Positions 4,749-29,097 of a stretch of 37,457 nucleotides of DNA are shown piece by piece. The position numbers and the translations under genes were made by a program. The notes under the pieces were generated by a model. The model did not search any database. It was not told the origin of the DNA and saw only the letters and a program-made list of their open reading frames with translations. The stretch's first letter is position 1. The number at the start of each line of letters is the position of its first letter. This stretch comes from a virus. The DNA is taken from UHGV virus genome UHGV-1707574; one strand, written 5' to 3'.

Positions 4749-4765
4749 ATTGCTCTAATGTATTG
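4749..4765 (+). promoter_or_regulatory. C1 operator-like site upstream of lpa
   Basis: ATTGCTCTAATGTATTG, 14/17 to the P1 C1 operator consensus ATTGCTCTAATAAATTT; lpa is known to be C1-controlled. Confidence 0.6.
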
Positions 4766-5318: not shown

Positions 5319-5337
5319 CATGTGACTTTCGTTACCC
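5319..5337 (+). promoter_or_regulatory. Candidate late (Lpa-dependent) promoter element upstream of pacA
   Basis: CATGTGACT-N4-TTACCC; one of four similarly built copies of CA(A/T)GTGA(C/T)T-N4-T.A upstream of genes. Confidence 0.4.
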
Positions 5338-5374
5338 TCGCGTCAAAAAGAGTTTTATACGAAAGGAAGCATAA

Positions 5375-6568
5375 GTGACCTGGGACGATCACAAGAAGAA
5401 TTTTGCTCGCCTGGCGCGAGATGGTGGTTACACCATCGCACAATATGCCGCCGAGTTTAATCTCAACCCAAACACCGCACGTCGTTATCTCCGTGCATTC
5501 AAAGAAGACACCGGAACAGCGGACAGCCGTAAGCCAAATAAGCCTGTCAGAAAACCACTAAAAAGCATGATCATTGATCACGCCAATGATCAACGTGCAG
5601 GTGATCACATTGTGGCTGAAATGGCTGAAAAACAAAGAGTTAATGCTGTTGTCAGTGCCGCAGTCGAGAACGCGAAGCGCCAGAATAAGCGCATAAATGA
5701 TCGTTCTGATGATCATGACGTGATCACCCGCGCCCACCGGACCTTACGTGATCGCCTGGAACGCGACACCCTGGATGATGATGGTGAACGCTTTGAATTC
5801 GAAGCTGGCGATTACCTGATAGATAACGTTGAAGCGCGGAAGGCCGCGCGCGCTATGTTGCGTCGGTCCGGGGCTGATGTTCTGGAAACCACTCTTCTGG
5901 AAAAGTCTCTCTCTCATCTCCTTATGCTGGAGAACGCCAGGGATACGTGTATTCGCTTGGTTCAGGAAATGCGCGATCAGCAAAAAGACGATGATGAAGG
6001 AACTCCGCCTGAATACCGTATCGCGAGCATGCTAAACAGCTGTTCCGCGCAGATAAGCAGCCTGATCAACACCATTTACAGCATCCGGAATAACTATCGA
6101 AAAGAAAGCCGGGAGGCGGAAAAGCACGCTTTGTCTATGGGGCAAGCTGGCATTGTTAAGCTGGCATACGAACGAAAGCGTGAAAACAACTGGTCAGTGC
6201 TGGAGGCAGCTGAATTCATCGAGGCGCATGGAGGGAAAGTACCGCCCCTGATGCTGGAGCAAATCAAAGCCGATCTGCGTGCTCCTAAGACCAATACCGA
6301 TGATGAGGAAAGGCAAACAGCCGTCGGTGGCCCTTCTCTTGAAGATCTGGACAAAGTTGCGCGAGAACGGGCCGCCAACCGCCGCGCCGATGCCGCATTG
6401 TGGATTGAGCAGCGTAGGGAAGAAATCGCCGATATCGTTGATACAGGCGGTTATGGAGATGTTGATACTGAAGGTGTATCAAACGACCCATGGCTGGAAC
6501 AAGACCTGGACGAAGACGAGGAGGAAGACGAAGAAGTTACCCGCAAGCTATACGGGGATGATGATTAA
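5375..6568 (+). CDS. pacA: PacA, terminase small/pac-recognition subunit, 397 aa
   Basis: GTG start with AAGGAAG SD; pac hexamer cluster lies inside the 5' part; acidic C-terminus; overlaps pacB start. Confidence 0.9.
5568..5726. other. pac packaging site (two clusters of TGATCA/G hexamers carrying Dam GATC sites)
   Basis: TGATCA at 5568, 5575, 5587, 5602; TGATCG/TGATCA at 5698, 5710, 5721 (another TGATCG at 5749). Confidence 0.8.
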
Positions 6569-8052
6569 TGGCCAGAAGTTGCGTAACGGATCCACGTTGG
6601 CGCGAGCTGGTGGCGCTATATCGTTATGACTGGATTGCTGCCGCTGATGTTTTGTTCGGCAAAACACCTACCTGGCAGCAGGATCTGATTATTGAGTCTG
6701 TGCAGGAACAGGGTAGCAAGACATCTGTTTCGTCTGGTCACGGTACCGGGAAATCAGACATGACTTCTATCATGATCATGTTGTTCATAATCATGTATCC
6801 AGGTGCCCGTGCCATTATCGTTGCGAACAAAATTCAGCAGGTAATGACCGGTATATTCAAGTACATCAAGATAAACTGGGCTACTGCCACCAGCCGTTTC
6901 CCATGGCTTGCTGATTATTTTGTTCTGACAGAAACCGCTTTCTATGAGGTTACAGGTAAAGGTGTATGGACTGTAGTACCGAAGGGCTTTCGTCTGGGAA
7001 GTGAAGAAGCTCTCGCCGGTGAACACGCAGATCATCTTCTGTATATTATCGATGAAGCCTCCGGTGTCAGTGATAGAGCTTTCGGTATCATCACCGGTGC
7101 TCTTACCGGACAGGATAACCGCATCTTATTACTGTCACAGCCTACACGCCCAAGCGGCTATTTCTACGATACACACCATAAACTGGCCAAGCGTCCTGGT
7201 AACCCTGATGGCGTTTATACGGCGATCACGCTTAACAGTGAGGAATCACCGCTGGTAACGCCAGCATTTATCAAAATGAAGCTGGCGGAGTACGGCGGGC
7301 GCGATAACCCTATGTACATGATTAAGGTACGCGGCCTATTCCCTAAATCACAGGATGGCTTCCTTCTTGGACGTGATGAGGTTGAACGTGCAACGCGGCG
7401 GAAAGTCAAGATTGCCAAAGGATGGGGCTGGCTTGCATGTGTGGACGTTGCTGGTGGTACGGGAAGGGATAAGTCCGTTATCAATATCATGATGGTGTCC
7501 GGCCAGAGAAATAAACGCCGTGTAATCAACTATCGAATGCTGGAATACACAGACGTTACAGAAACGCAGCTTGCCGCCAAAATTTTCGCAGAATGTAATC
7601 CTGAGCGATTCCCAAATATCACCATAGCGATAGACGGCGATGGGCTGGGTAAAGCAACGGCGGATCTGATGTACGAGTATTATGGTATTACCGTACAGCG
7701 TATACGCTGGGGTAAAAAGATGCATAGCCGTGAAGATAAAAGCCTGTACTTTGATAAGCGTGCTTATGCCAACGTTCAAGCCGCAGAGGCCGTAAAATCA
7801 GGTCGTATGAGACTGGATAAGGGTAATGAAACTATTGAGGAAGCGTCGAAAATCCCTGTAGGGATTAACTCCGCAGGTCAATGGAAGGTGATGAGTAAGG
7901 AGGATATGAAGAAAAAACTCAACCTGCACTCACCAGACCATTGGGATACATATTGTTTCGCTATGCTGGCGGATTATGTTCCCCAGGATGAAGTGCTTAG
8001 CGTCGAAGACGAAGCGCAGGTTGATGAAGCTCTGGCATGGCTTAATGAATAA
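6568..8052 (+). CDS. pacB: PacB, terminase large subunit, 494 aa
   Basis: Walker A GHGTGKS, Walker B LLYIIDE, C-terminal acidic nuclease-like motifs (CVDVAGG, AIDGDG, SPDHWD). Confidence 0.9.
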
Positions 8053-8076: not shown

Positions 8077-8928
8077 CTATTGCGCGCTTTCGGGGTTGTC
8101 GTTTACTGGCTGCCCCTTCTTAGTTTTACGGCTGCGCGTAACTGATGCGGCTGATTTGACCTTTTTCTCTTCGCGAGTGATGGCAATTTGTTTTTTTACA
8201 TTTTCAATATCTGCCAGGCGATATATTTTTGCCTGCGGCCAGCGGTCGCAGATGATCGGTTCTATAGAGTCATAAAGGCTAAATTTTGCTTTCTCGAATT
8301 CACCGTTGATGATAATTCCATCACGGAGAGTTTCATCGCAGATAAACACACCACATAGCGGCACATGGTAACTAACTGATTTACCATCATTGTAGTTAGG
8401 GCTACTAGAAATGTAATGGACGCGCAGCATTGTTTCGCTAAAGCCGTGTACGCGCATACGGAATTTTTCATCCTCCGGGTACTGCTTCATTAGCTCTTTT
8501 GTTGCTTCCAGGTTCTCTATGTATTTCGCACTGTGCTCATTGATCCCTGCGCTTTTCTGGATGCGAATGTCCTTATCAATCAGATGAATAATGCGGCCAG
8601 CGGTCATGTTGACGCTGTTCACTGCTTCTGTCTGATAAGTCGTAACCTTACGCACACCGCGAAGGATGTTAGGCACTGGATATAAAATAGTCTTTGGGAT
8701 ATTGAGGTCTGGGTACTGTTCCAGTTCCCGCGCCATTAAAGTCCATTTATCAATTTCAGCCTGAATGCTGTCAGTTTCTTTGAACGGCAGAACGACAACC
8801 GGGCGTACAGGACGACCGTCGCTGGCGGCATCAACGTGTTGGGCGCGTGCAACAGCTTTTTTTAGAAAGAGATCCCTGAAGCTGACGAACTCCTGGTACA
8901 GTTGTTCGCCGTAGACATAATTTATCAT
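8077..8928 (-). CDS. c1: C1 repressor of lytic functions, 283 aa
   Basis: 283-aa ORF beginning MINYVYGEQLYQEF..., strong SD GGAGGAGG; position next to coi and loxP. Confidence 0.95.
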   Translation of the reverse strand: MINYVYGEQLYQEFVSFRDLFLKKAVARAQHVDAASDGRPVRPVVVLPFKETDSIQAEIDKWTLMARELEQYPDLNIPKTILYPVPNILRGVRKVTTYQTEAVNSVNMTAGRIIHLIDKDIRIQKSAGINEHSAKYIENLEATKELMKQYPEDEKFRMRVHGFSETMLRVHYISSSPNYNDGKSVSYHVPLCGVFICDETLRDGIIINGEFEKAKFSLYDSIEPIICDRWPQAKIYRLADIENVKKQIAITREEKKVKSAASVTRSRKTKKGQPVNDNPESAQ

Positions 8929-8989: not shown

Positions 8990-9038
8990 ACCACCATTAT
9001 AGAAGGATCCAACGAAAATAATAGATTTATTAGTGCAT

Positions 9039-9248
9039 TTATTGTGAGTCTGGCTGGTTAGTGGCCATGAGATATTCGATTGTGTCAGTGAGATCATCCA
9101 GGTCGTCTTGGGTGATGCGGTACTCCTGATTGGATATCTTTGAGTAGTGTTCAGCAATGGCGCGGGCAGCGTCGGTTTCGGCGGGGTCTACAGATAAAGC
9201 GTTAGAGCAATGTCTAACGTCGTCGATGGTTGGTGGAATGAAAGCCAT
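9039..9248 (-). CDS. coi: Coi, C1 inactivator, 69 aa
   Basis: 69-aa acidic ORF immediately upstream of c1 on the same strand. Confidence 0.85.
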   Translation of the reverse strand: MAFIPPTIDDVRHCSNALSVDPAETDAARAIAEHYSKISNQEYRITQDDLDDLTDTIEYLMATNQPDSQ

Positions 9249-9485: not shown

Positions 9486-9502
9486 ATAATTTATTAGAGC
9501 AA
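9486..9502 (-). promoter_or_regulatory. C1 operator (Op99-type) upstream of the coi/c1 operon
   Basis: TAATTTATTAGAGCAAT, reverse complement matches the consensus 16/17. Confidence 0.7.
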
Positions 9503-9569
9503 TTGTCAAACAACTATGAAAAACAATCCAGTTTTTGGCTGGTGGAGTGGGATTTTTCTCTCAAAATTT

Positions 9570-9586
9570 ATTGCTCTAATAATTCT
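9570..9586 (+). promoter_or_regulatory. C1 operator (Op99-type)
   Basis: ATTGCTCTAATAATTCT, 15/17 to consensus. Confidence 0.7.
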
Positions 9587-11129: not shown

Positions 11130-11146
11130 ATTGCTCTAATTATTTG
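11130..11146 (+). promoter_or_regulatory. C1 operator-like site just downstream of cre
   Basis: ATTGCTCTAATTATTTG, perfect 11-bp core, 14/17 overall. Confidence 0.5.
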
Positions 11147-11628: not shown

Positions 11629-11688
11629 TTAGCCGCAGTTTTTGTCAACTACGAAGACGTTGCCATTACTTAACTCCTTGACATCATT

Positions 11689-11714
11689 GGCGGCCATCAG
11701 GCCGCCTTTTTTTT
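11689..11714 (+). terminator. Terminator-like GC hairpin plus T8 directly abutting the ref start codon
   Basis: GGCGGCC-ATCA-GGCCGCC then TTTTTTTT; ref ATG 6 nt later with no SD. Confidence 0.55.
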
Positions 11715-11719
11715 GCCAT

Positions 11720-12280
11720 ATGAAAACAATCGAACAAAAAATTGAACAGCACCGTAAGTGGCAGAAGGCAGCCAGAGAACGAGCGATCGCTCGGCAACGG
11801 GAGAAGTTGGCTGATCCGGCCTGGCGAGAATCTCAATATCAGAAAATGCGGAATACTATCGACCGCCGTATCGCTAAACAGAAAGAGCGCCCACCAGCCA
11901 GCAAAACGCGGAAAAGCGCGGTAAAGATAAAATCTCGTGGCTTGAAGGGGCGAACACCGACAGCGGAGGAACGGAGCATCGCCAATGCTCTTGGCGCTCT
12001 CCCCTGCATTGCCTGCTACATGCATGGAGTAATATCTGAAGAGGTGTCTCTGCACCATATTTCCGGTCGTACCGCGCCTGGTTGTCACAAAAAGCAATTG
12101 CCACTTTGTAGATGGCACCACCAGCATGCAGCACCGGCTGAAGTAAGAGCAAAATACCCCTGGCTGGTCCCTGTTCATGCCGATGGTGTGGTTGGAGGCA
12201 AGAAAGAATTCACCCTGCTGAACAAGTCAGAGATGGAGTTACTGGCTGACGCCTATGAGATGGCAAACATCATGCACTAA
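11720..12280 (+). CDS. ref: Ref, recombination enhancement function (HNH-type endonuclease), 186 aa
   Basis: MKTIEQKIEQHRKWQKAARERAIARQ...; Cys/His cluster CIACYMHG...HHISGR...CRWHH; position after cre. Confidence 0.9.
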   Translation: MKTIEQKIEQHRKWQKAARERAIARQREKLADPAWRESQYQKMRNTIDRRIAKQKERPPASKTRKSAVKIKSRGLKGRTPTAEERSIANALGALPCIACYMHGVISEEVSLHHISGRTAPGCHKKQLPLCRWHHQHAAPAEVRAKYPWLVPVHADGVVGGKKEFTLLNKSEMELLADAYEMANIMH

Positions 12281-21200: not shown

Positions 21201-22007
21201 CACATCAACGACTGTACTGGTCCCGTTTGCGTCAAAAGTACCGGTAGGCAAGCGGTGAGCGCCAAGAAATTCAGCTTTCCGTGATAGGCGCAGGCGTAAC
21301 CGCTTCATGTTTGAACCTGAAACAATGGACGGCGGCACAATCACACACATGAATCCGCCAGGCTTTATCTTGTCCAGCATGCGGAGCATGAAGTAAGAAC
21401 CCATGTCCGTTTCTTCTGCGTAAGGCTTATCGATGTTGCGTGTGTTATCACGACCGCCGAACGGAACGTTACCCACAACATGGTCGAATGAATCGTTAGG
21501 CGTGCTTATAGCCAGCTGTTCGAACGGGGAAATCTGTACGCTGTCTTCCGGGTGTAACAACTGGTTTATACGACCGGAAACACTGCTGATCTCAGTCGCG
21601 GTCATCACCGTACCAACCGGTTTTGTCTCATTAAAAACGCCGGTTCCCGCCGATGGTTCCAGAGTGTTACCTACGTCCGCGCCGTAGAGCTTCATGATCT
21701 CCCAGACACCTTCAGCGATCGGCTTTGGTGTGTAATATTCGGAGACGGACCCGCCAATGCCGCCTTCACCGGTGTACCCAGCCAGGATCTGGCGCTGTTC
21801 ATCTGTCAGTGTCGCGCCGTCCACCAGCGAATTAAGCAAATCTATCGCCTTCTGATTCGCCTCCCGGCGTAGTCGGTCATAGCTTTTGCCTTCCACCTTT
21901 TCCACGCCGTATCTAATCGGCGCTCGGTGAGATGTTATTGCCCTAATGTATTTCAATATTTCGCTGACACTTGAACAGCGAAACACCCCCATAGATAGCT
22001 TGTTCAT
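15240..22007 (-). CDS. darB: DarB, 2255-aa methyltransferase/helicase-type anti-restriction protein
   Basis: Single 6.8-kb ORF; SF2 helicase motifs GFGTGLGKT and VIADEGHNYR; size and position match P1 DarB. Confidence 0.9.
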   Translation of the reverse strand: MNKLSMGVFRCSSVSEILKYIRAITSHRAPIRYGVEKVEGKSYDRLRREANQKAIDLLNSLVDGATLTDEQRQILAGYTGEGGIGGSVSEYYTPKPIAEGVWEIMKLYGADVGNTLEPSAGTGVFNETKPVGTVMTATEISSVSGRINQLLHPEDSVQISPFEQLAISTPNDSFDHVVGNVPFGGRDNTRNIDKPYAEETDMGSYFMLRMLDKIKPGGFMCVIVPPSIVSGSNMKRLRLRLSRKAEFLGAHRLPTGTFDANGTSTVVDVVLMRKHPAEMAEKIPLVDEGTLESANVLWPTFISGKWFEKDGRRFVHGTQEKGFQGRIEVRADGQIDNQALKAKLIHRFESRIDWSLLDMAEPSPTADVVGEGEMRLINGVWQKYAGGRWIEADAGKELKIDAASYGADSWEALQRNLTTTEGRLGMTFTQMANVRDKYTTSISDDMVQLVDWINSQPEKYRERLYRGAMIGRMLIEYQDMKAAGHSAEQIEQQRLSLVSRLQAEIDRFGNPGRGPIAKLSGSGARAWFAFRGAIKLDGTISDELTGKLVTHDSSASYDSTSYQDTLRYLYSDLTRDPIQLDDFRLAFTGELPASDDELLNLLASTPGIAVSPYGGIVPFARATSGDINEIVAPKREFLATLPDGPVKNNVLNQLAAIEEKRIKTPAENIRFKLNSRWFDRSVILEFLQENGYPDLRYVQSVQLEGDEMVSDTYHGGDGLFVGHRYGVVQRKDKETGEIRYEWDRKSGENATGFPAQLEKYLNGARIGGKDSATANGYREQMALLEDQFNKWIKTHDRYDELVAKYNDVFNSNIPYEHSGDPLGLKGLSGKRQPFDYQNSEVRRLSEDGRGILGFGTGLGKTTTALALEAFNYENGRSTRTAYVVPKSVLENWYYEAKEFLSEEAFSNYLFVGLDVLMDGDQIRQVPVLDENGKPVLGTDGTPVMRDALKLADEATITARMNAIPHSNYRAVVFTKEQYARIPLRDDTVDEHAQDMLYDFVAAGRVASAMDSDSHRKEAARRRVLSEYSDTGTEKAEKYPYFEDMGFDSVIADEGHNYRNSYKNGREASQLAYLPTSAVAQSARDMAIKNAYLMKKNGGRGPVLLTATPVVNTPIDAYNMLSHVLPKEYWQKMGIYGPDDFVKFFGKTRLETVQKISGEVEEKMALVGFENLDALRGIFHRWTTLKTAEDVKDTVEIPELDEHQQDAPLTEEQLAAYEELRQQAEAAAKANNGVTTSVNEDGVIEHEKARPIFSIIRDMDRVCTDMDLYYRRITYRFLPEYADAVQQLADSLPKQATSEDDDSDDSITQQSQYSLIDKGEFIQLQVPEAFEQEVNKRLARFGIDEQTVTHPVTPKYAKLIATLKEFFPEGKQIIFTDEKTQHQKLKRIICNALNLEPSKVGILNAQTVAEAGKTGKKLKAVKPPKELPDEPTDAQIAKYNEQMALYDAYIAQQNEMSLGGLEKIAADFQEGRTPIIICNKKAEVGINLHRGTTDIHHLTLPWTPASIAQRNGRGARVGSNRASVRVHYYCGKGSFDEYRLKTLKRKAGWISDILRSDKSEMENADANEMIEMQMYTAKDDGERLAMMQVQMDKAKAAQRARQKEQATIDLQNYIKAQHAAGEDVEVLTAELERSKAELEKTTAEVAKFKQAVMAKAADNADWKARWGSVHHTDRMLLAQYRASLKNAIQRKANISQAISRYEKLLNRTQKAATDIKRLRPLVEDAINKGILDVDPDLVNHASEFLVIGDRSWRVGQYYDCAGDIVRIKSLDFDSQRADVEIIFTFKGTKSGNWDVKTLDKQVDVTPDEDAVMQKISGGVSIAGINDIISCDDFYRFQQRGMIKITDSYGVQTTESGYSIDFVGTYTDPLKHAVYPDRRDGALKSSIAKWVLGMMSEGNNRQIRSAETFLVELFGSNYGDVIASYGDTLSPEAIQEKIADAIARMPEKTSQGATRNGDSELEVTNAIFGTNEFRASDYEITTAQFGTIGIYSNKDEIKQSMDAASARIAAERKANLNHAVSALTQSWVTAIREAATTGKITPAIADVVNDGSKFMDAYKMDAVQLPSAYGQLSYRMTYNLVSMFSDLAILGLVDLNEVTPELLSMRKNHVEILQRINTVLAGRTDEEKQADADRINLALGNITEEEIAARNEKQEELSSIQGDATSIAQSLGLNYRVSTADLKMMYAPKFAAGEVFGLQEASGMKGVLFRAKDAIKAKFGARWLPAKAKNSDFPGNWWIIETKHNVADVLAVIQQYA

Positions 22008-25786: not shown

Positions 25787-25803
25787 ATTGCTCTAATTAA
25801 TTT
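25787..25803 (+). promoter_or_regulatory. C1 operator upstream of ssb
   Basis: ATTGCTCTAATTAATTT, 16/17 to consensus, 20 bp before the ssb start. Confidence 0.65.
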
Positions 25804-25822: not shown

Positions 25823-26311
25823 GTGGCACAACGCGGTGTAAATAAAGTCATCCTGATAGGTACCCTGGGACAAGACCCAGATATCAGGTATATACCAAAT
25901 GGCGGAGCAGTCGGAAGACTCAGCATCGCAACGAATGAATCATGGCGCGACAAGCAAACAGGCCAACAGAAAGAGCAAACAGAATGGCATAAAGTCGTTT
26001 TGTTCGGAAAACTTGCTGAAATTGCGAGTGAGTATTTACGAAAAGGTTCTCAGGTCTACATCGAAGGGAAACTTAAAACCCGTAAGTGGACAGATGACGC
26101 CGGTGTAGAACGTTACACGACGGAAATTATCGTCAGCCAGGGCGGAACCATGCAAATGATCGGCGCTCGCCGCGACGATTCACAGTCCTCAAATGGCTGG
26201 GGGCAGTCAAACCAACCTCAAAACCACCAGCAGTACAGCGGTGGCGGCAAACCTCAGAGCAGCGCCAATAACGAACCTCCAATGGACTTTGAAGACGATA
26301 TTCCGTTTTAG
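25823..26311 (+). CDS. ssb: Ssb, single-stranded DNA-binding protein, 162 aa
   Basis: GTG start; OB-fold N-terminus, Gly/Gln-rich linker and acidic tail DFEDDIPF. Confidence 0.95.
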
Positions 26312-26513: not shown

Positions 26514-27191
26514 ATGAATAACATGACAACGAAAGAGCTTTTGACGGCACTTCCAAAATACAAAAGCCATAAAACAGTTCGCGCCTCAAAAATCAAAGAT
26601 ATCGAAATTATCGCCCTAATGGATGTGGTCCTTTTTTGCAACATCGAAGTCGTTGAGCCAGAAGGGGTAAAAGTCCATGTTGATAAAATATTTTTGCAAA
26701 AACACCGACCAGAAATTGGCGGATATCTGGTCGCTTATGAGGACGGTTCTCTGTCCTATTCACCAGAAAAAACATTTGAAGAAGGCTTTAGTCGGACTAA
26801 CGACTTCTTCGAAAATGGGGTATCGCTCAGCATTGAAGGTCACAATGGGGTGACATTCATTACAGCCAGGGACGTAACTATTTCTGCTGGCGGTATCGCT
26901 ACTCTACAAGAAGAAATCGACCTTGAAGCAGCCGACTTTTCTGACGCGCTGATGTGGCTGAAGGATGGCAAGAAAGTTGCCCGACGCGGGTGGAACGGCG
27001 AAAACCAATTCTGCTGGCTGGTTCCTGAAGGACAGTACCCGGCACGAATGGAAGCCATTAAGGGATATTTCCCCGGCGACCTCGTTCCGTATGGTGCTTA
27101 TTTCGCCTTAAAAAATGCACAAGGTGTAGTTGTTCCGTGGGTTCCTTCTGTAGGCGACTTACTGGCATGTGACTGGTTTGTAGTGGAGTGA
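26514..27191 (+). CDS. Two-domain protein, 225 aa; C-terminal DUF2829/Tad2-like domain
   Basis: ATG 26514 with GAGGAAAG SD; C-terminus FSDALMWLKDGKKVARRGWNGENQFCWLVPEG...VPWVPSVGDLLACDWFVVE. Confidence 0.7.
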   Translation: MNNMTTKELLTALPKYKSHKTVRASKIKDIEIIALMDVVLFCNIEVVEPEGVKVHVDKIFLQKHRPEIGGYLVAYEDGSLSYSPEKTFEEGFSRTNDFFENGVSLSIEGHNGVTFITARDVTISAGGIATLQEEIDLEAADFSDALMWLKDGKKVARRGWNGENQFCWLVPEGQYPARMEAIKGYFPGDLVPYGAYFALKNAQGVVVPWVPSVGDLLACDWFVVE

Positions 27192-27197
27192 TTTAAC

Positions 27198-27980
27198 GTG
27201 GAAAATACTAAAGCAATTCAATACCGCCTGCGTAATGGTCAGAGTGTCGAAGTGACCATCAATAATGATGGTGTGCCTGGCGAAAAGGTTTCGATCTCTG
27301 ATCTGGCTATCGAAAAAACCATCATGTGCCACCTTGGCTTTACTGAAGAAGTGAGCAAAAAGCATGGTGTAGCAATCTGGAGCGCAATGGATACTGGTAT
27401 GCACAGATTCATTACTGCTCGTACCCCAGGGATGACCATGATGGACCTCATGCAGATTGCGCCGCTGTTTGAATGTGAGCCTTTAGATGTATTCAGCAAT
27501 CCAGCTATCTGCCAGCAGCTATATGGTGAGATGAAACTCGCGGTTACCCCCATTGTGCTGCATGAAGGATCGCTTGCTGGCGTGTGGAAAGTGGAGCGTA
27601 TTTCAAGCTACATGCCTTTCCATGTCAACGGCGTAATCACTGGTGAAAATCAACCTGTTTCCGTTATAAAGTCAGACCTCAAGCGCGCAATTCTTGAAGC
27701 AAGTTGTCGAGTTGTCGGCCTGGGCAAACAGTCTTATGTTTCCTTCCCGGCTGGCCCTGAAGGCCCGGCAGAAATTCTGATTATGGATGCCGATCTGCTA
27801 TGGCAAATACAGTTTCTGATTGGCAAAAGCATCATCCGCGCTGAAGAACTCGATCAGTACATTACCTGCACGATGACGGATGAAGTCAAAAGTGTGGCTA
27901 TAGCCAATGCCCGGAACCTATGTCGTGCTGCATTAACAGAACTGCAAGAAAACACCACGGAAGAGGTGGAAAGTGATTAA
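27198..27980 (+). CDS. Hypothetical protein, 260 aa
   Basis: GTG start with GGAGTG SD; stop overlaps the next gene's start. Confidence 0.65.
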   Translation: MENTKAIQYRLRNGQSVEVTINNDGVPGEKVSISDLAIEKTIMCHLGFTEEVSKKHGVAIWSAMDTGMHRFITARTPGMTMMDLMQIAPLFECEPLDVFSNPAICQQLYGEMKLAVTPIVLHEGSLAGVWKVERISSYMPFHVNGVITGENQPVSVIKSDLKRAILEASCRVVGLGKQSYVSFPAGPEGPAEILIMDADLLWQIQFLIGKSIIRAEELDQYITCTMTDEVKSVAIANARNLCRAALTELQENTTEEVESD

Positions 27981-29067
27981 TCGTATACAGAATGAATCTG
28001 CCTGGTTAGCACTGATAGAACGGTATAAAGACAATTGGGAACTGGCAGCAAAAGAGTTGCTTGATATTGAGTTAACACCTCATCAAGCAAAAATTATTAA
28101 CGCGATAAAGAACACCGGAGCCAAAGTCACTGCCACCACACCACATGGTATTGGGGAAACCTCTATTGTGGCAGTGATTAGCATCCTGCAAACAATACTG
28201 TATTCGTGTTCCCGTACAGTGGTTGTTTCTCCTGCGATTAACGATAGTCGAAAAACAATAATTGACTATATGTTCCGTTATTGGGAGCGAGTTACCCAAA
28301 AACACCCTTTTCTTGGCAATTATTTCAGAATACACCCTGACAAAGGGTTGGTGCATATCAGTGAAACATGGGGATGCGTCTATATAACCTATTGTCTGAA
28401 TAACGAAGAGTCTCTGGCTGGTTTTACTGGACCGCACGATCTTTTCATCGTTATTAACTCGGCGGAAATCAGCGATCGCGCTCATGCAGTGATAACTGGC
28501 AATTTAACCAATTATGACTCGCGCCTGCTGTTGCTGTCGAAACCATCGGAACGCGAGAAAGGGTACTTTTATGATTCGCATCACCGGTTGGCCCATAGTA
28601 AAAACAATCCTGCTGGTTTTTTCACGGCGATAACTCTAAACACAGAGGATTCACCTCTCGTTTCTGAAGCATATCTTGAATTCAAAGCCAAAGAGTTTGG
28701 TGGGCGCAATAGCGATGAATATCGCCGATTGATCTTGGGGAAATTCCCCGGGATTCGGGAGTTGATGGAAAAGTCATCTGTTCCCCGTAATATGCACTTC
28801 ACAATGACTGACGGTAGTAAATGGGTAGTGCCTACGATCGTGATCGCCAAACACCATGCGAAACATCACGCTCAAAAACACAACTCCAGCACATTAGACT
28901 GGCTGAAGGCCTATACAATACCGTTATTCTCGGCAAACCATAACGCTATAACTGAATGGGCTAAACAAATCCCCTGGCAGGATGTGGCTGAAGAGGCATT
29001 TGTCGAAAAACCACCAAGAGATTTGCACGAGCACTGTTGGCTGACATCAGAAAAAAGCTTCTCGTGA
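27973..29067 (+). CDS. PacB-paralog: terminase large subunit ATPase-like domain with degenerate Walker motifs and no nuclease domain, 364 aa
   Basis: GTG start with GAGGTGG SD; extensive similarity to PacB residues 1 to about 270 in this same window, but GHGTGKS becomes PHGIGET and IIDEAS becomes VINSAE. Confidence 0.75.
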   Translation: MINRIQNESAWLALIERYKDNWELAAKELLDIELTPHQAKIINAIKNTGAKVTATTPHGIGETSIVAVISILQTILYSCSRTVVVSPAINDSRKTIIDYMFRYWERVTQKHPFLGNYFRIHPDKGLVHISETWGCVYITYCLNNEESLAGFTGPHDLFIVINSAEISDRAHAVITGNLTNYDSRLLLLSKPSEREKGYFYDSHHRLAHSKNNPAGFFTAITLNTEDSPLVSEAYLEFKAKEFGGRNSDEYRRLILGKFPGIRELMEKSSVPRNMHFTMTDGSKWVVPTIVIAKHHAKHHAQKHNSSTLDWLKAYTIPLFSANHNAITEWAKQIPWQDVAEEAFVEKPPRDLHEHCWLTSEKSFS

Positions 29068-29070
29068 GGT

Positions 29071-29097
29071 AAAAATCCCGCCGATTGGCGGGATTTC
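29071..29097. terminator. Bidirectional terminator between the + cassette and the dar operon
   Basis: AAAAATCCCGCC-GATT-GGCGGGATTTCTT. Confidence 0.7.

Follow-up and report, generated by a model that had tools for sequence, protein, structure and literature searches.

Why would a phage-plasmid that already encodes an intact large terminase carry a second gene resembling it, 20 kb away from its packaging genes pacA and pacB? The question is raised by the UHGV virus genome UHGV-1707574, a stretch of 37,457 nucleotides (nt), here called the window, which is a section of a P1-like (Punavirus) phage-plasmid. The product of this second gene, hereafter the paralog, is almost certainly a pseudo-enzyme: a PacB-type ATPase domain without the hydrolysis apparatus and without the nuclease, fused to a domain of ~100 amino acids (aa), kept intact under purifying selection and belonging to an old family of dead, ATPase-only proteins. 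The features that enter the comparison with PacB are the following.

27973 to 29067, + strand: the paralog gene, with a GTG start and a product of 364 aa, in which a dead ATPase domain of the large terminase (TerL) type is fused to a C-terminal domain of the nin-region type.
27973 to 28755, + strand: ATPase-like domain, aa 1-261, homologous to PacB aa 1-262.
28141 to 28161, + strand: degenerate Walker A motif (P-loop) PHGIGET, aa 57-63; the PacB counterpart is GHGTGKS.
28441 to 28467, + strand: degenerate Walker B strand LFIVINSAE, aa 157-165; the PacB counterpart is LLYIIDEAS, aa 157-165.
28525 to 28551, + strand: degenerate coupling (C) motif LLLLSKPSE; the PacB counterpart is ILLLSQPTR, of which Q, T and R are gone.
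28756 to 29064, + strand: C-terminal domain, aa 262-364, homologous to a stand-alone phage early-region protein of ~100 aa, with KHHAKHHAQKH encoded at 28849-28881.
6568 to 8052, + strand: pacB, the functional large terminase and reference copy, 494 aa, with Walker A GHGTGKS and Walker B IIDEAS intact.
5375 to 6568: pacA, the small terminase, upstream of pacB.

The BLASTP alignment of the paralog with PacB contains 94 identities in 266 positions (35%) and 58% positives, with E = 8e-55, and spans aa 11-272 of the paralog and aa 11-274 of PacB. The similarity over the first ~270 residues claimed by the first-pass annotation, made from the letters of the window alone, is thus confirmed, and both stretches that it quoted as examples lie inside this alignment. 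The protein also matches phrog_5902 and phrog_2 'terminase large subunit' (E 3.6e-9). No meaningful match was obtained in Pfam, NCBIfam or PADLOC, and searches of PDB sequences with the paralog and with the family profile found nothing. The AlphaFold2 (AF2) model of the full protein, calculated from an alignment of three sequences, was poor, with a predicted local distance difference test (pLDDT) score of 53, and was used for no claim.

The residues required for catalysis were examined in these alignments. The Walker A lysine (K62 of PacB) is replaced by a glutamate, GHGTGKS becoming PHGIGET as first described. The Walker B acidic pair is lost as well, but the register initially given for this loss was one residue off: BLAST, MAFFT and hmmalign agree that PacB D162 faces I161 of the paralog and E163 faces N162, instead of D facing N and E facing S. 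In either alignment register, the paralog presents no acidic residue at either position. Additionally, S56, G57, H153, Q191, T193 and R194 (PacB numbering) are gone. With BLASTP and MAFFT, no paralog residue past aa ~272 aligns with the PacB nuclease domain, whose absence had been correctly noted. Compared with the five features that define a large terminase, the paralog presents the ATPase homology and lacks the other four, namely Walker A, Walker B with the coupling motif, the nuclease, and a position in the late packaging operon together with essentiality. Therefore, it should not be annotated as a functional large terminase.

The degenerate motifs are not peculiar to the window. A HMMER search seeded by the paralog and its two closest relatives yielded 1,212 relatives, most of which are PacB-like terminases of ~500 aa with intact GK(S/T) and DE motifs. 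Interspersed among the top relatives are proteins with degenerate motifs (P and L numbers designate proteins and loci of the survey), among them:

P0004, 366 aa: Walker A PHGIGHK, Walker B IVMDAA.
P0005, 266 aa: Walker A PHGIGRA, Walker B IVVNAA.
P0008, 264 aa: Walker A PAGVGMH, Walker B IITDAA.
P0009, 264 aa: Walker A GGGVGTH, Walker B IVLHAA.
P0010, 444 aa: Walker A GDGTGIS, Walker B IIPDAT.
P0012, 263 aa: Walker A PSGIGCK, Walker B ICPNAN.
P0014, 252 aa: Walker A APGVGTN, Walker B IVPQAS.

The same dead set also includes P0047, P0069 and two fused proteins from the loci L042 and L054. The ATPase domain of the family has ~250-265 aa and ends at G-(E/L/K)-F-P; most members stop a few residues past this G-x-F-P motif, which closes the domain, and are hence ATPase-only, while some bear C-terminal additions.

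We contrasted the conservation of 36 active PacB-like terminases with that of 13 dead members. The nine residues S56, G57, K62, H153, D162, E163, Q191, T193 and R194 are near-always kept in the active proteins and none of them is kept in the dead set. The P-loop lysine is present in 100% of the 36 active relatives and in 0 of the 13 dead members, where its position is occupied by E, R, H, M, T, I, C or N; likewise Q191 (100%), T193 (86%) and R194 (89%) are conserved in the active terminases and not in the dead clade. As the dead members carry different substitutions at the catalytic positions, the constraint on the defunct site appears to be relaxed. Other positions are kept in active and dead proteins alike: Q37/Q38, G59, G61, A150-G151, S190, GYFYD-HH, SPLV, YGG and G-F. 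In the N-terminal ~45 residues and in the C-terminal half of the ATPase domain, conservation within the dead clade equals or exceeds that of the active PacB-like terminases. The loss of K62, D162, E163 and further invariant residues across the 13 members supports the initial view of a catalytically dead terminase ATPase paralog. Its description as a second, truncated copy of pacB holds for the homology to PacB but not for a simple copy, the protein belonging instead to a separate and old ATPase-only lineage.

In a neighbour-joining tree calculated without support values, the 13 dead sequences form one clade adjoining the PacB-like terminases, and, apart from it, P0044 and P0141 pair up as a second dead group. 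The dead clade is, apparently, a single old and monophyletic lineage, long-branch attraction being possible in a tree without bootstrap. The locus of the separate pair, L059 (4621-5424; P0141/P0154, 267 aa), lies among tail-fibre-like and tail-protein genes and not among early genes; from this setting, the loss of Walker motifs in PacB-like ATPase domains may have arisen more than once. The Walker-dead PacB-type ATPase family is a subset of phrog_5902. The literature searched on a P1 pacB paralog, on inactive terminase homologues and on the ssb-hxr variable region contains no mention of the paralog gene, and the Walker-dead family, its fusion with an early-region domain and its linkage to isaA are undescribed there.

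Selection on the gene was evaluated with the window copy, 10 further P1-type copies and 12 copies of a second clade, clade 2, whose proteins are ~52% identical to the window paralog, the 22 additional copies all coming from viral contigs (n=23). The reading frame is intact in all 23 copies. The ratio of nonsynonymous to synonymous substitution rates (dN/dS, or omega), calculated by the Nei-Gojobori method on informative pairs, is 0.16-0.30 within the P1-type clade, with for instance an omega of 0.25 for the copy of L018 (dS 0.136) and of 0.26 for that of L036 (dS 0.19), and 0.07-0.26 within clade 2. The constraint applies to the ATPase part and to the tail alike. The paralog gene is, therefore, maintained by selection and is neither a recent truncated duplicate nor a relic. 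In phage vB_EcoM-813R1 (ON470617.2; L002, 9001-10094) the paralog match has 1,094 nt instead of 1,095, the annotated coding sequence stops early and the tblastn match is continuous to aa 334 only; whether it is a deletion or an error of sequencing, this 1-nt difference would cut the tail domain short.

The tail itself had been described as unrelated and His-rich. With the nuclease domain it indeed has nothing in common, but it constitutes a conserved domain, of which more than 1,100 homologues exist. The C-terminal ~100 aa of the paralog are conserved across the P1-type protein, the 52%-identical clade 2 and a third fused clade, and match the C-terminus of phrog_17928 (E 1.4e-13). A profile search with the tail only retrieved 1,112 proteins with E<1e-3 (best E 4.5e-47). 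Nearly all of the 120 best relatives are stand-alone proteins of 96-110 aa, without Pfam domain or informative name. An alignment of 115 tail sequences presents nine invariant columns (D, S, W, P, A, T, F, W, W), all of which are found in the window protein, and the common motifs MxDGSxWxVP, IA..(H/R)A..(H/Y)(H/Y)A, PLF and W..V. Only the P1-type and clade-2 copies have the His run; in the consensus of the family, R and Y take its place. The AF2 model of the tail (pLDDT 86.8) consists of a beta-hairpin plus helices, and a fold search with this predicted model matched no solved structure.

The usual neighbours of the stand-alone relatives of the tail are dnaB, ssb, erf or recE. In lambdoid prophages, the stand-alone gene is flanked by a DnaB-type helicase gene and by ninB. 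In Cronobacter phage JK004, gene 35 is a stand-alone tail gene after DnaB, that is, in the slot that the fused gene occupies in the related loci L042 and L054. In Xanthomonas phage CP2, the domain forms the C-terminus of ORF36 (511 aa; 36% identity with the tail over aa 411-500), directly upstream of erf-exonuclease-endonuclease-ssb; the match of ORF36 to DUF1351 is weak and sub-threshold. Upstream of erf/recT/sak4-ssb modules, a DUF1351 gene is reported to be a typical neighbour, standing where Mu Gam-like genes are found in other cases (PMC8093625). In Bordetella phage PHB04, a tail-domain protein is encoded after recE and a gene for an SMC-like ATPase.

The locus of the paralog in the window is ordered C1 operator, ssb, Tad2-like gene, isaA, paralog, hairpin, convergent hxr and dar operon, with the following features.

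25787 to 25803, + strand: C1 repressor operator, equivalent of Ossb/Op21 of P1, with 1 mismatch to ATTGCTCTAATAAATTT, overlapping the ssb promoter region.
25823 to 26311, + strand: ssb, 98-100% identical to ssb of P1-like phages.
26514 to 27191, + strand: Tad2-like (DUF2829) gene, 225 aa, with its ATG at 26514 preceded by a ribosome binding site, an optional member of the cassette.
27198 to 27980, + strand: isaA, 260 aa, 94% identical to P1 IsaA aa 60-320, phrog_2326.
29073 to 29096: hairpin AAATCCCGCC-GATT-GGCGGGATTT, a perfect GC-rich stem of 10 bp between the convergent paralog and hxr genes.

The C1 operator consensus has seven matches in the window with at most three mismatches, 0.18 being expected by chance. 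They are found at 4749-4765, 9023-9039, 9487-9503, 9570-9586, 11130-11146, 21937-21953 and 25787-25803; a pair of them is close to c1 (8077-8928, minus strand), and one precedes ssb. The latter is the sole recognisable control site upstream of the cassette, and the same position is annotated in NC_005856 as Ossb/Op21 with the promoters P1ssb/P2ssb. A consensus scan found no promoter between ssb and the paralog, and the matches of a terminator scan on the + strand of the same interval were absent or unconvincing. The hairpin at 29073-29096 is likely a bidirectional terminator closing the ssb operon, its RNA folding with -20.7 kcal/mol (z = -4.9; 0 of 200 shuffles fold as well). Considering the C1 operator and the lack of an internal promoter or convincing terminator, we infer that the paralog belongs to the C1-repressed early ssb operon, with which, judging from these sequence signals, it would be co-transcribed early. 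The GTG start of the paralog lies 8 nt inside the end of isaA, overlapping its stop, and is preceded by the Shine-Dalgarno (SD)-like GAGGTGG, an arrangement that indicates translational coupling with isaA.

The neighbours were characterised in the same way. IsaA has no recognisable family or solved relative, a profile search against the PDB having found nothing, and at E <= 0.1 no PADLOC-DB model matches the paralog, IsaA or the Tad2-like protein. The possibility that the 260-aa upstream gene encodes a PacA paralog, forming a second terminase pair, was rejected, as there is no similarity (E 12) and the protein is IsaA. The reference P1 IsaA (320 aa) has an N-terminal extension of 59 aa without counterpart in the window; as the DNA of this extension is replaced in elements with the Tad2-like gene, the P1 isaA start is probably annotated too far upstream. 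The Tad2-like domain corresponds to PF11195 (Thoeris anti-defence 2; E 2.5e-22) and comprises the C-terminal ~84 aa, aa 197-280 of the long open reading frame (ORF), the N-terminal domain of the protein being unrelated to Tad2 and the RefSeq label being DUF2829 protein. Given the ribosome binding site and the ATG at 26514, the listed GTG ORF from 26346 is probably over-extended. Among loci with the same isaA and paralog, the Tad2-like gene is mosaic, with 58% to 100% identity to the window copy.

Wherever a viral locus with the paralog includes enough sequence on the upstream side, the gene immediately preceding the paralog is isaA. The clade-2 members are found on contigs of 60-86 kb, ~5.5-6.8 kb downstream of their own intact PacB, which is 57% identical to that of the window; in L021, a gene for a Cre-like recombinase stands between the two. 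There, the cassette tad2-like-isaA-paralog follows a dUTPase gene and precedes a UmuD-like gene. Each paralog-carrying backbone also has an intact PacB-type terminase. On this comparison of sequences, the paralog and isaA travel as a cassette between different phage-plasmid backbones.

Further lineages associate dead ATPases with other genes. In L041, a homologue of the RecA-dependent nuclease Ref (5327-6001; PF16786, E 2e-34), 48% identical to the window Ref encoded at 11642-12280, overlaps by 4 nt a short Walker-dead ATPase of 263 aa (5998-6789), which suggests that Ref and the dead ATPase form a gene pair in this phage-plasmid lineage. A distant IsaA homologue (25% identity) is encoded 2.7 kb upstream in L040/L041, after a dUTPase-like gene; two other phage-plasmid lineages have dead ATPases together with remote relatives of IsaA (25-47% identity), as in L037 (819-1781). 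In L042 (5983-7071, 362 aa), a dead ATPase fused to the tail starts 33 nt after a gene for a DnaB/Ban-type helicase, and in L054 (5209-6312, 367 aa) the fused gene again follows the helicase, with one called gene of 113 aa between them. These two loci represent the third fused clade, in ~95-kb phage-plasmids of the Salmonella/Cronobacter type; L058 (5010-5306) was noted along with them. The public gene call of L054 covers only the last 103 aa (P0253); the continuous ORF of 367 aa is present. In the P0047-like locus L060, a dead ATPase (1229-1978) is overlapped by an ORF of 177 aa (1975-2508) in which, by eye, VDVTGAGKA resembles IDGDGLGKA of the terminase nuclease; the BLASTP comparison was not significant, and the pair is possibly a split degenerate terminase. 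No context was found in viral contigs for the short dead members P0008 and P0009. Altogether, both halves of the protein recur beside single-strand-binding, helicase and recombination genes in unrelated phages.

The paralog is far from being present in all P1-like genomes, a point on which the first-pass annotation had proposed a survey: only 120 of the 617 PLSDB plasmids with a pacB match (~19%) carry it, as do 3 of 19 phage records with such a match. Among 5,426 complete E. coli genomes it occurs in 100 (~2%), and 99 of its 101 places are on plasmids. The ssb-hxr interval is one of eight hypervariable regions in P1-like phage-plasmids (PMC9603915). In canonical P1 its order is ssb-isaA-IS1-isaB-hxr, and the paralog sits exactly in the slot of IS1 and isaB; SJ46 has ssb-tad2-like-isaA-hxr without the paralog, and MH422554 and 813R1 have ssb-isaA-paralog-hxr without the Tad2-like gene, which is absent from most P1-type copies of the cassette. 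The P1 isaA gene is, thus, part of a wider cassette, which IS1 may have disrupted in the laboratory phage. We also considered whether P1 IsaB could be a C-terminal remnant of the paralog cut by IS1, and rejected this, there being no similarity (E 0.85): the P1 DNA is simply different there. Elsewhere the interval holds a porin gene, nmpC/ompD, with odaA (P7, JL22, phi456) or an ISSod13-family transposase (RCS47), a variety of cargo that agrees with its description as hypervariable.

The essential genes of P1 include pacA and pacB, and ssb, isaA and isaB are non-essential (PMC10695390). Being absent from canonical P1 and from ~80% of P1-like plasmids, the paralog is dispensable for P1-type phages. 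Its copies are 98.9-100% identical at the nucleotide level and are found with both types of pacB, the window pacB having 81% nucleotide identity to that of canonical P1/P7 and 99% to those of SJ46, phiW39 and 813R1. Public labels of the gene vary: PGAP names the same 364-aa ORF 'hypothetical protein', and in MH422554.1 (16006-17100) and MH445380.1 (116879-117973) it is labelled 'terminase large subunit' beside the real pacB. Given the missing catalytic motifs and nuclease, the latter label is a mis-annotation.

What, then, does the protein do? The first-pass annotation had offered three roles, a packaging or DNA-binding adaptor, an interference factor against co-infecting phages or a decoy for host sensors; the setting in the genome brings in a fourth, a connection with replication and recombination. 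The reading that we favour, with a confidence that stays below even, is that of a non-catalytic binding adaptor in an accessory programme linked to early replication and recombination. The paralog would stand outside the packaging motor. It and IsaA would be co-translated from the C1-repressed ssb operon soon after induction or infection, ahead of the late genes pacA and pacB. The paralog would need no ATP hydrolysis and would act by binding alone, serving the accessory part of the early replication and recombination programme as an adaptor or scaffold. One surface, made of the N-terminal helices and of the lid-like C-terminal half of the ATPase domain (GYFYDSHH, EDSPLV, YGGR, G-FP), would serve for DNA or for a partner such as IsaA; the other, the fused tail, would be aimed at the target of the tail domain in those phages where DnaB, SSB, Erf/exonuclease or RecE is encoded beside it. 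We rank this reading first because the association with replication and recombination recurs for both domains in at least six independent contexts. If true, the paralog would be a new accessory factor of phage replication or recombination.

Several observations weigh against the adaptor. A neighbourhood is weak evidence, early operons near replication genes also holding unrelated accessory and counter-defence genes, and the cassette itself includes a Tad2-like gene; we hold the adaptor loosely for this reason. No DNA-binding or partner-binding motif was identified in the paralog, the fold of the tail matches nothing solved, and its candidate partner IsaA lacks a recognisable family or solved relative. 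The paralog is dispensable and its neighbours ssb and isaA are non-essential in P1 (PMC10695390). Its patchy spread in a hypervariable region (PMC9603915) fits a gene of an arms race at least equally well, and the co-transcription with ssb is deduced from sequence only.

The alternative that survives best, although we consider it rather unlikely, is counter-defence by mimicry of the terminase: a putative early decoy with the shape of the ATPase, which would occupy or mislead the sensors Avs1-3 and Upx before PacB appears. The decoy might, with the same low probability, do so because it has neither the bound ATP nor the active-site residues that close the sensor interface, so that no oligomerisation would be triggered. 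The ATPase domain alone is a ligand of EcAvs2 and Upx, and Avs2 and Avs3 touch the ATP bound by the terminase and residues of its active site (PMC13601566), exactly the features that are gone in the paralog; the ATPase-only T4 paralog vs.8 also engages EcAvs2. The early C1-controlled expression, as deduced for this locus, would suit a decoy, and so would the Tad2-like gene of the same cassette in two lineages, the adjoining dar anti-restriction operon and the patchy distribution in a hypervariable region. Nevertheless, the dN/dS of 0.07-0.3 and the deep conserved family are unlike a fast arms-race gene, and the Tad2-like gene is missing from most P1-type copies. Moreover, Upx binds the unfolded ATPase core independently of catalysis, so that an extra TerL-like fold could be a liability, and the loss of the ATP contacts may just abolish binding. 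The known anti-Avs proteins (ORF55 ligase, ORF83) act differently, and a decoy leaves the fused tail and the linkage to isaA, Ref and DnaB unexplained. Extended to the whole dead family, as an ATP-free target mimic that pre-occupies or mis-assembles Avs1-3 and Upx so that PacB goes unnoticed, the idea is to our mind unlikely. If the decoy were real, it would be a target-mimic inhibitor of terminase sensing, the first among anti-Avs proteins to imitate the phage protein that is sensed, and phages would, by implication, be able to evolve 'silent' versions of the conserved pattern molecules that they themselves carry.

A regulator of packaging, or an agent of interference with it, is likewise improbable. 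The paralog would then retain the surfaces with which PacB contacts PacA, adjacent PacB subunits or the portal and act as a dominant-negative or titrating subunit, and its purpose might, with no better prospects, be to delay pac cleavage until replication has formed concatemers or to sabotage the terminase of related co-infecting phages or satellites. In line with such a role, conservation in the first ~45 residues and in the C-terminal half of the ATPase domain matches or exceeds that of active terminases, with the catalytic residues lost, every carrier backbone has an intact PacB-type terminase, and precedents exist: TerI binds the small terminase TerS, Ppi and RppA act on TerS, and Gpi of the phage-inducible chromosomal island-like element (PLE) acts on TerL (bioRxiv 10.1101/2025.02.27.640495). 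However, the C1 operator points to apparent repression in the lysogen, hence to no exclusion of superinfecting phages by the prophage, and expression would be with the early and not with the late packaging genes. The occurrence of near-identical paralogs (>=98.9% at the nucleotide level) with two pacB variants that are only 81% nucleotide-identical argues against tight co-evolution with PacB. Finally, packaging leaves the independent life of the tail domain beside replication and recombination genes unexplained. If this explanation were correct after all, the paralog would represent a new mechanism of packaging interference.

Very improbable is an unconventional but active nucleoside triphosphatase, which would bind the nucleotide through, for example, the E62/T63 region, N162 and E165. 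The P-loop glycines G59 and G61 and the Q37/Q38 motif are kept in the dead clade, and several members have an Asp one residue past the Walker B position (IIVDSA, IVMDAA, IITDAA); against this, no family member combines a Lys in the P-loop with a following Ser/Thr, the catalytic Glu and the SQPTR residues have disappeared in every case, and the differing substitutions indicate relaxed constraint. A decaying, functionless remnant of a duplicated terminase gene, for which the lost catalytic residues and nuclease domain and the dispensability for P1-type phages could be quoted, is effectively refuted by the selection analysis (23 of 23 ORFs intact, dN/dS 0.07-0.30), by 52%-identical homologues that keep the architecture and the gene partner, by the conservation of a dozen deep lineages and by a start coupled to isaA with an SD sequence.

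Few proteins of tailed phages are as conserved as the large terminase, which is also a main pattern recognised by the bacterial immune sensors of the STAND (signal transduction ATPases with numerous domains) class. From the existence of a conserved and selected family of dead terminase ATPases in P1-like and other phage-plasmids of Enterobacteria, it is evident that this fold has acquired a second job that is not packaging.

The comparison with known systems starts with PacB itself. The paralog has in common with it the N-terminal helices, the Q-motif, the P-loop glycines, GYFYD(S/T)HH, E(D/E)SPLV, YGGR and G-FP, and differs in lacking the Walker A Lys, the Walker B Asp, the catalytic Glu, the SQPTR residues and the nuclease domain. 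It is, moreover, not beside pacA but in an early C1-controlled operon, has a foreign C-terminal domain and is dispensable.

A second parallel is offered by the uncharacterised T4 protein vs.8, which is an ATPase-only paralog of gp17, the T4 terminase, and activates EcAvs2 (PMC13601566). Like the paralog, it is a stand-alone copy of a terminase ATPase, without nuclease domain and encoded away from the packaging genes; in contrast to the paralog, which has neither motif, it keeps an intact Walker A (GGRQSGKS) and Walker B (LYIIDE). Homology between the two was considered and rejected, the best high-scoring segment pair in BLASTP comprising 25 residues with a pairwise E of 0.023 and the hhalign probability being 0.2%. 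Without detectable similarity and with intact Walker motifs, vs.8 thus arose independently, from another terminase lineage.

TerI of the Listeria prophage phi10403S, Ppi of the Staphylococcus aureus pathogenicity islands (SaPI), RppA of the phage-inducible chromosomal islands (PICI) and PLE Gpi are element-encoded, non-enzymatic proteins that act on the packaging complex. None of them is described as terminase-derived, and TerI is expressed in the lysogen, whereas the paralog lies behind a C1 operator; if the paralog binds PacA or PacB, they are possible functional analogues. The closest likeness of its C-terminal part is with the stand-alone early-region family of ~100 aa (the C-terminal part of phrog_17928), to which it is homologous across the whole domain of ~95 aa. 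In that family the domain is free or fused to a DUF1351-like region, whereas in the paralog it is fused to a dead terminase ATPase.

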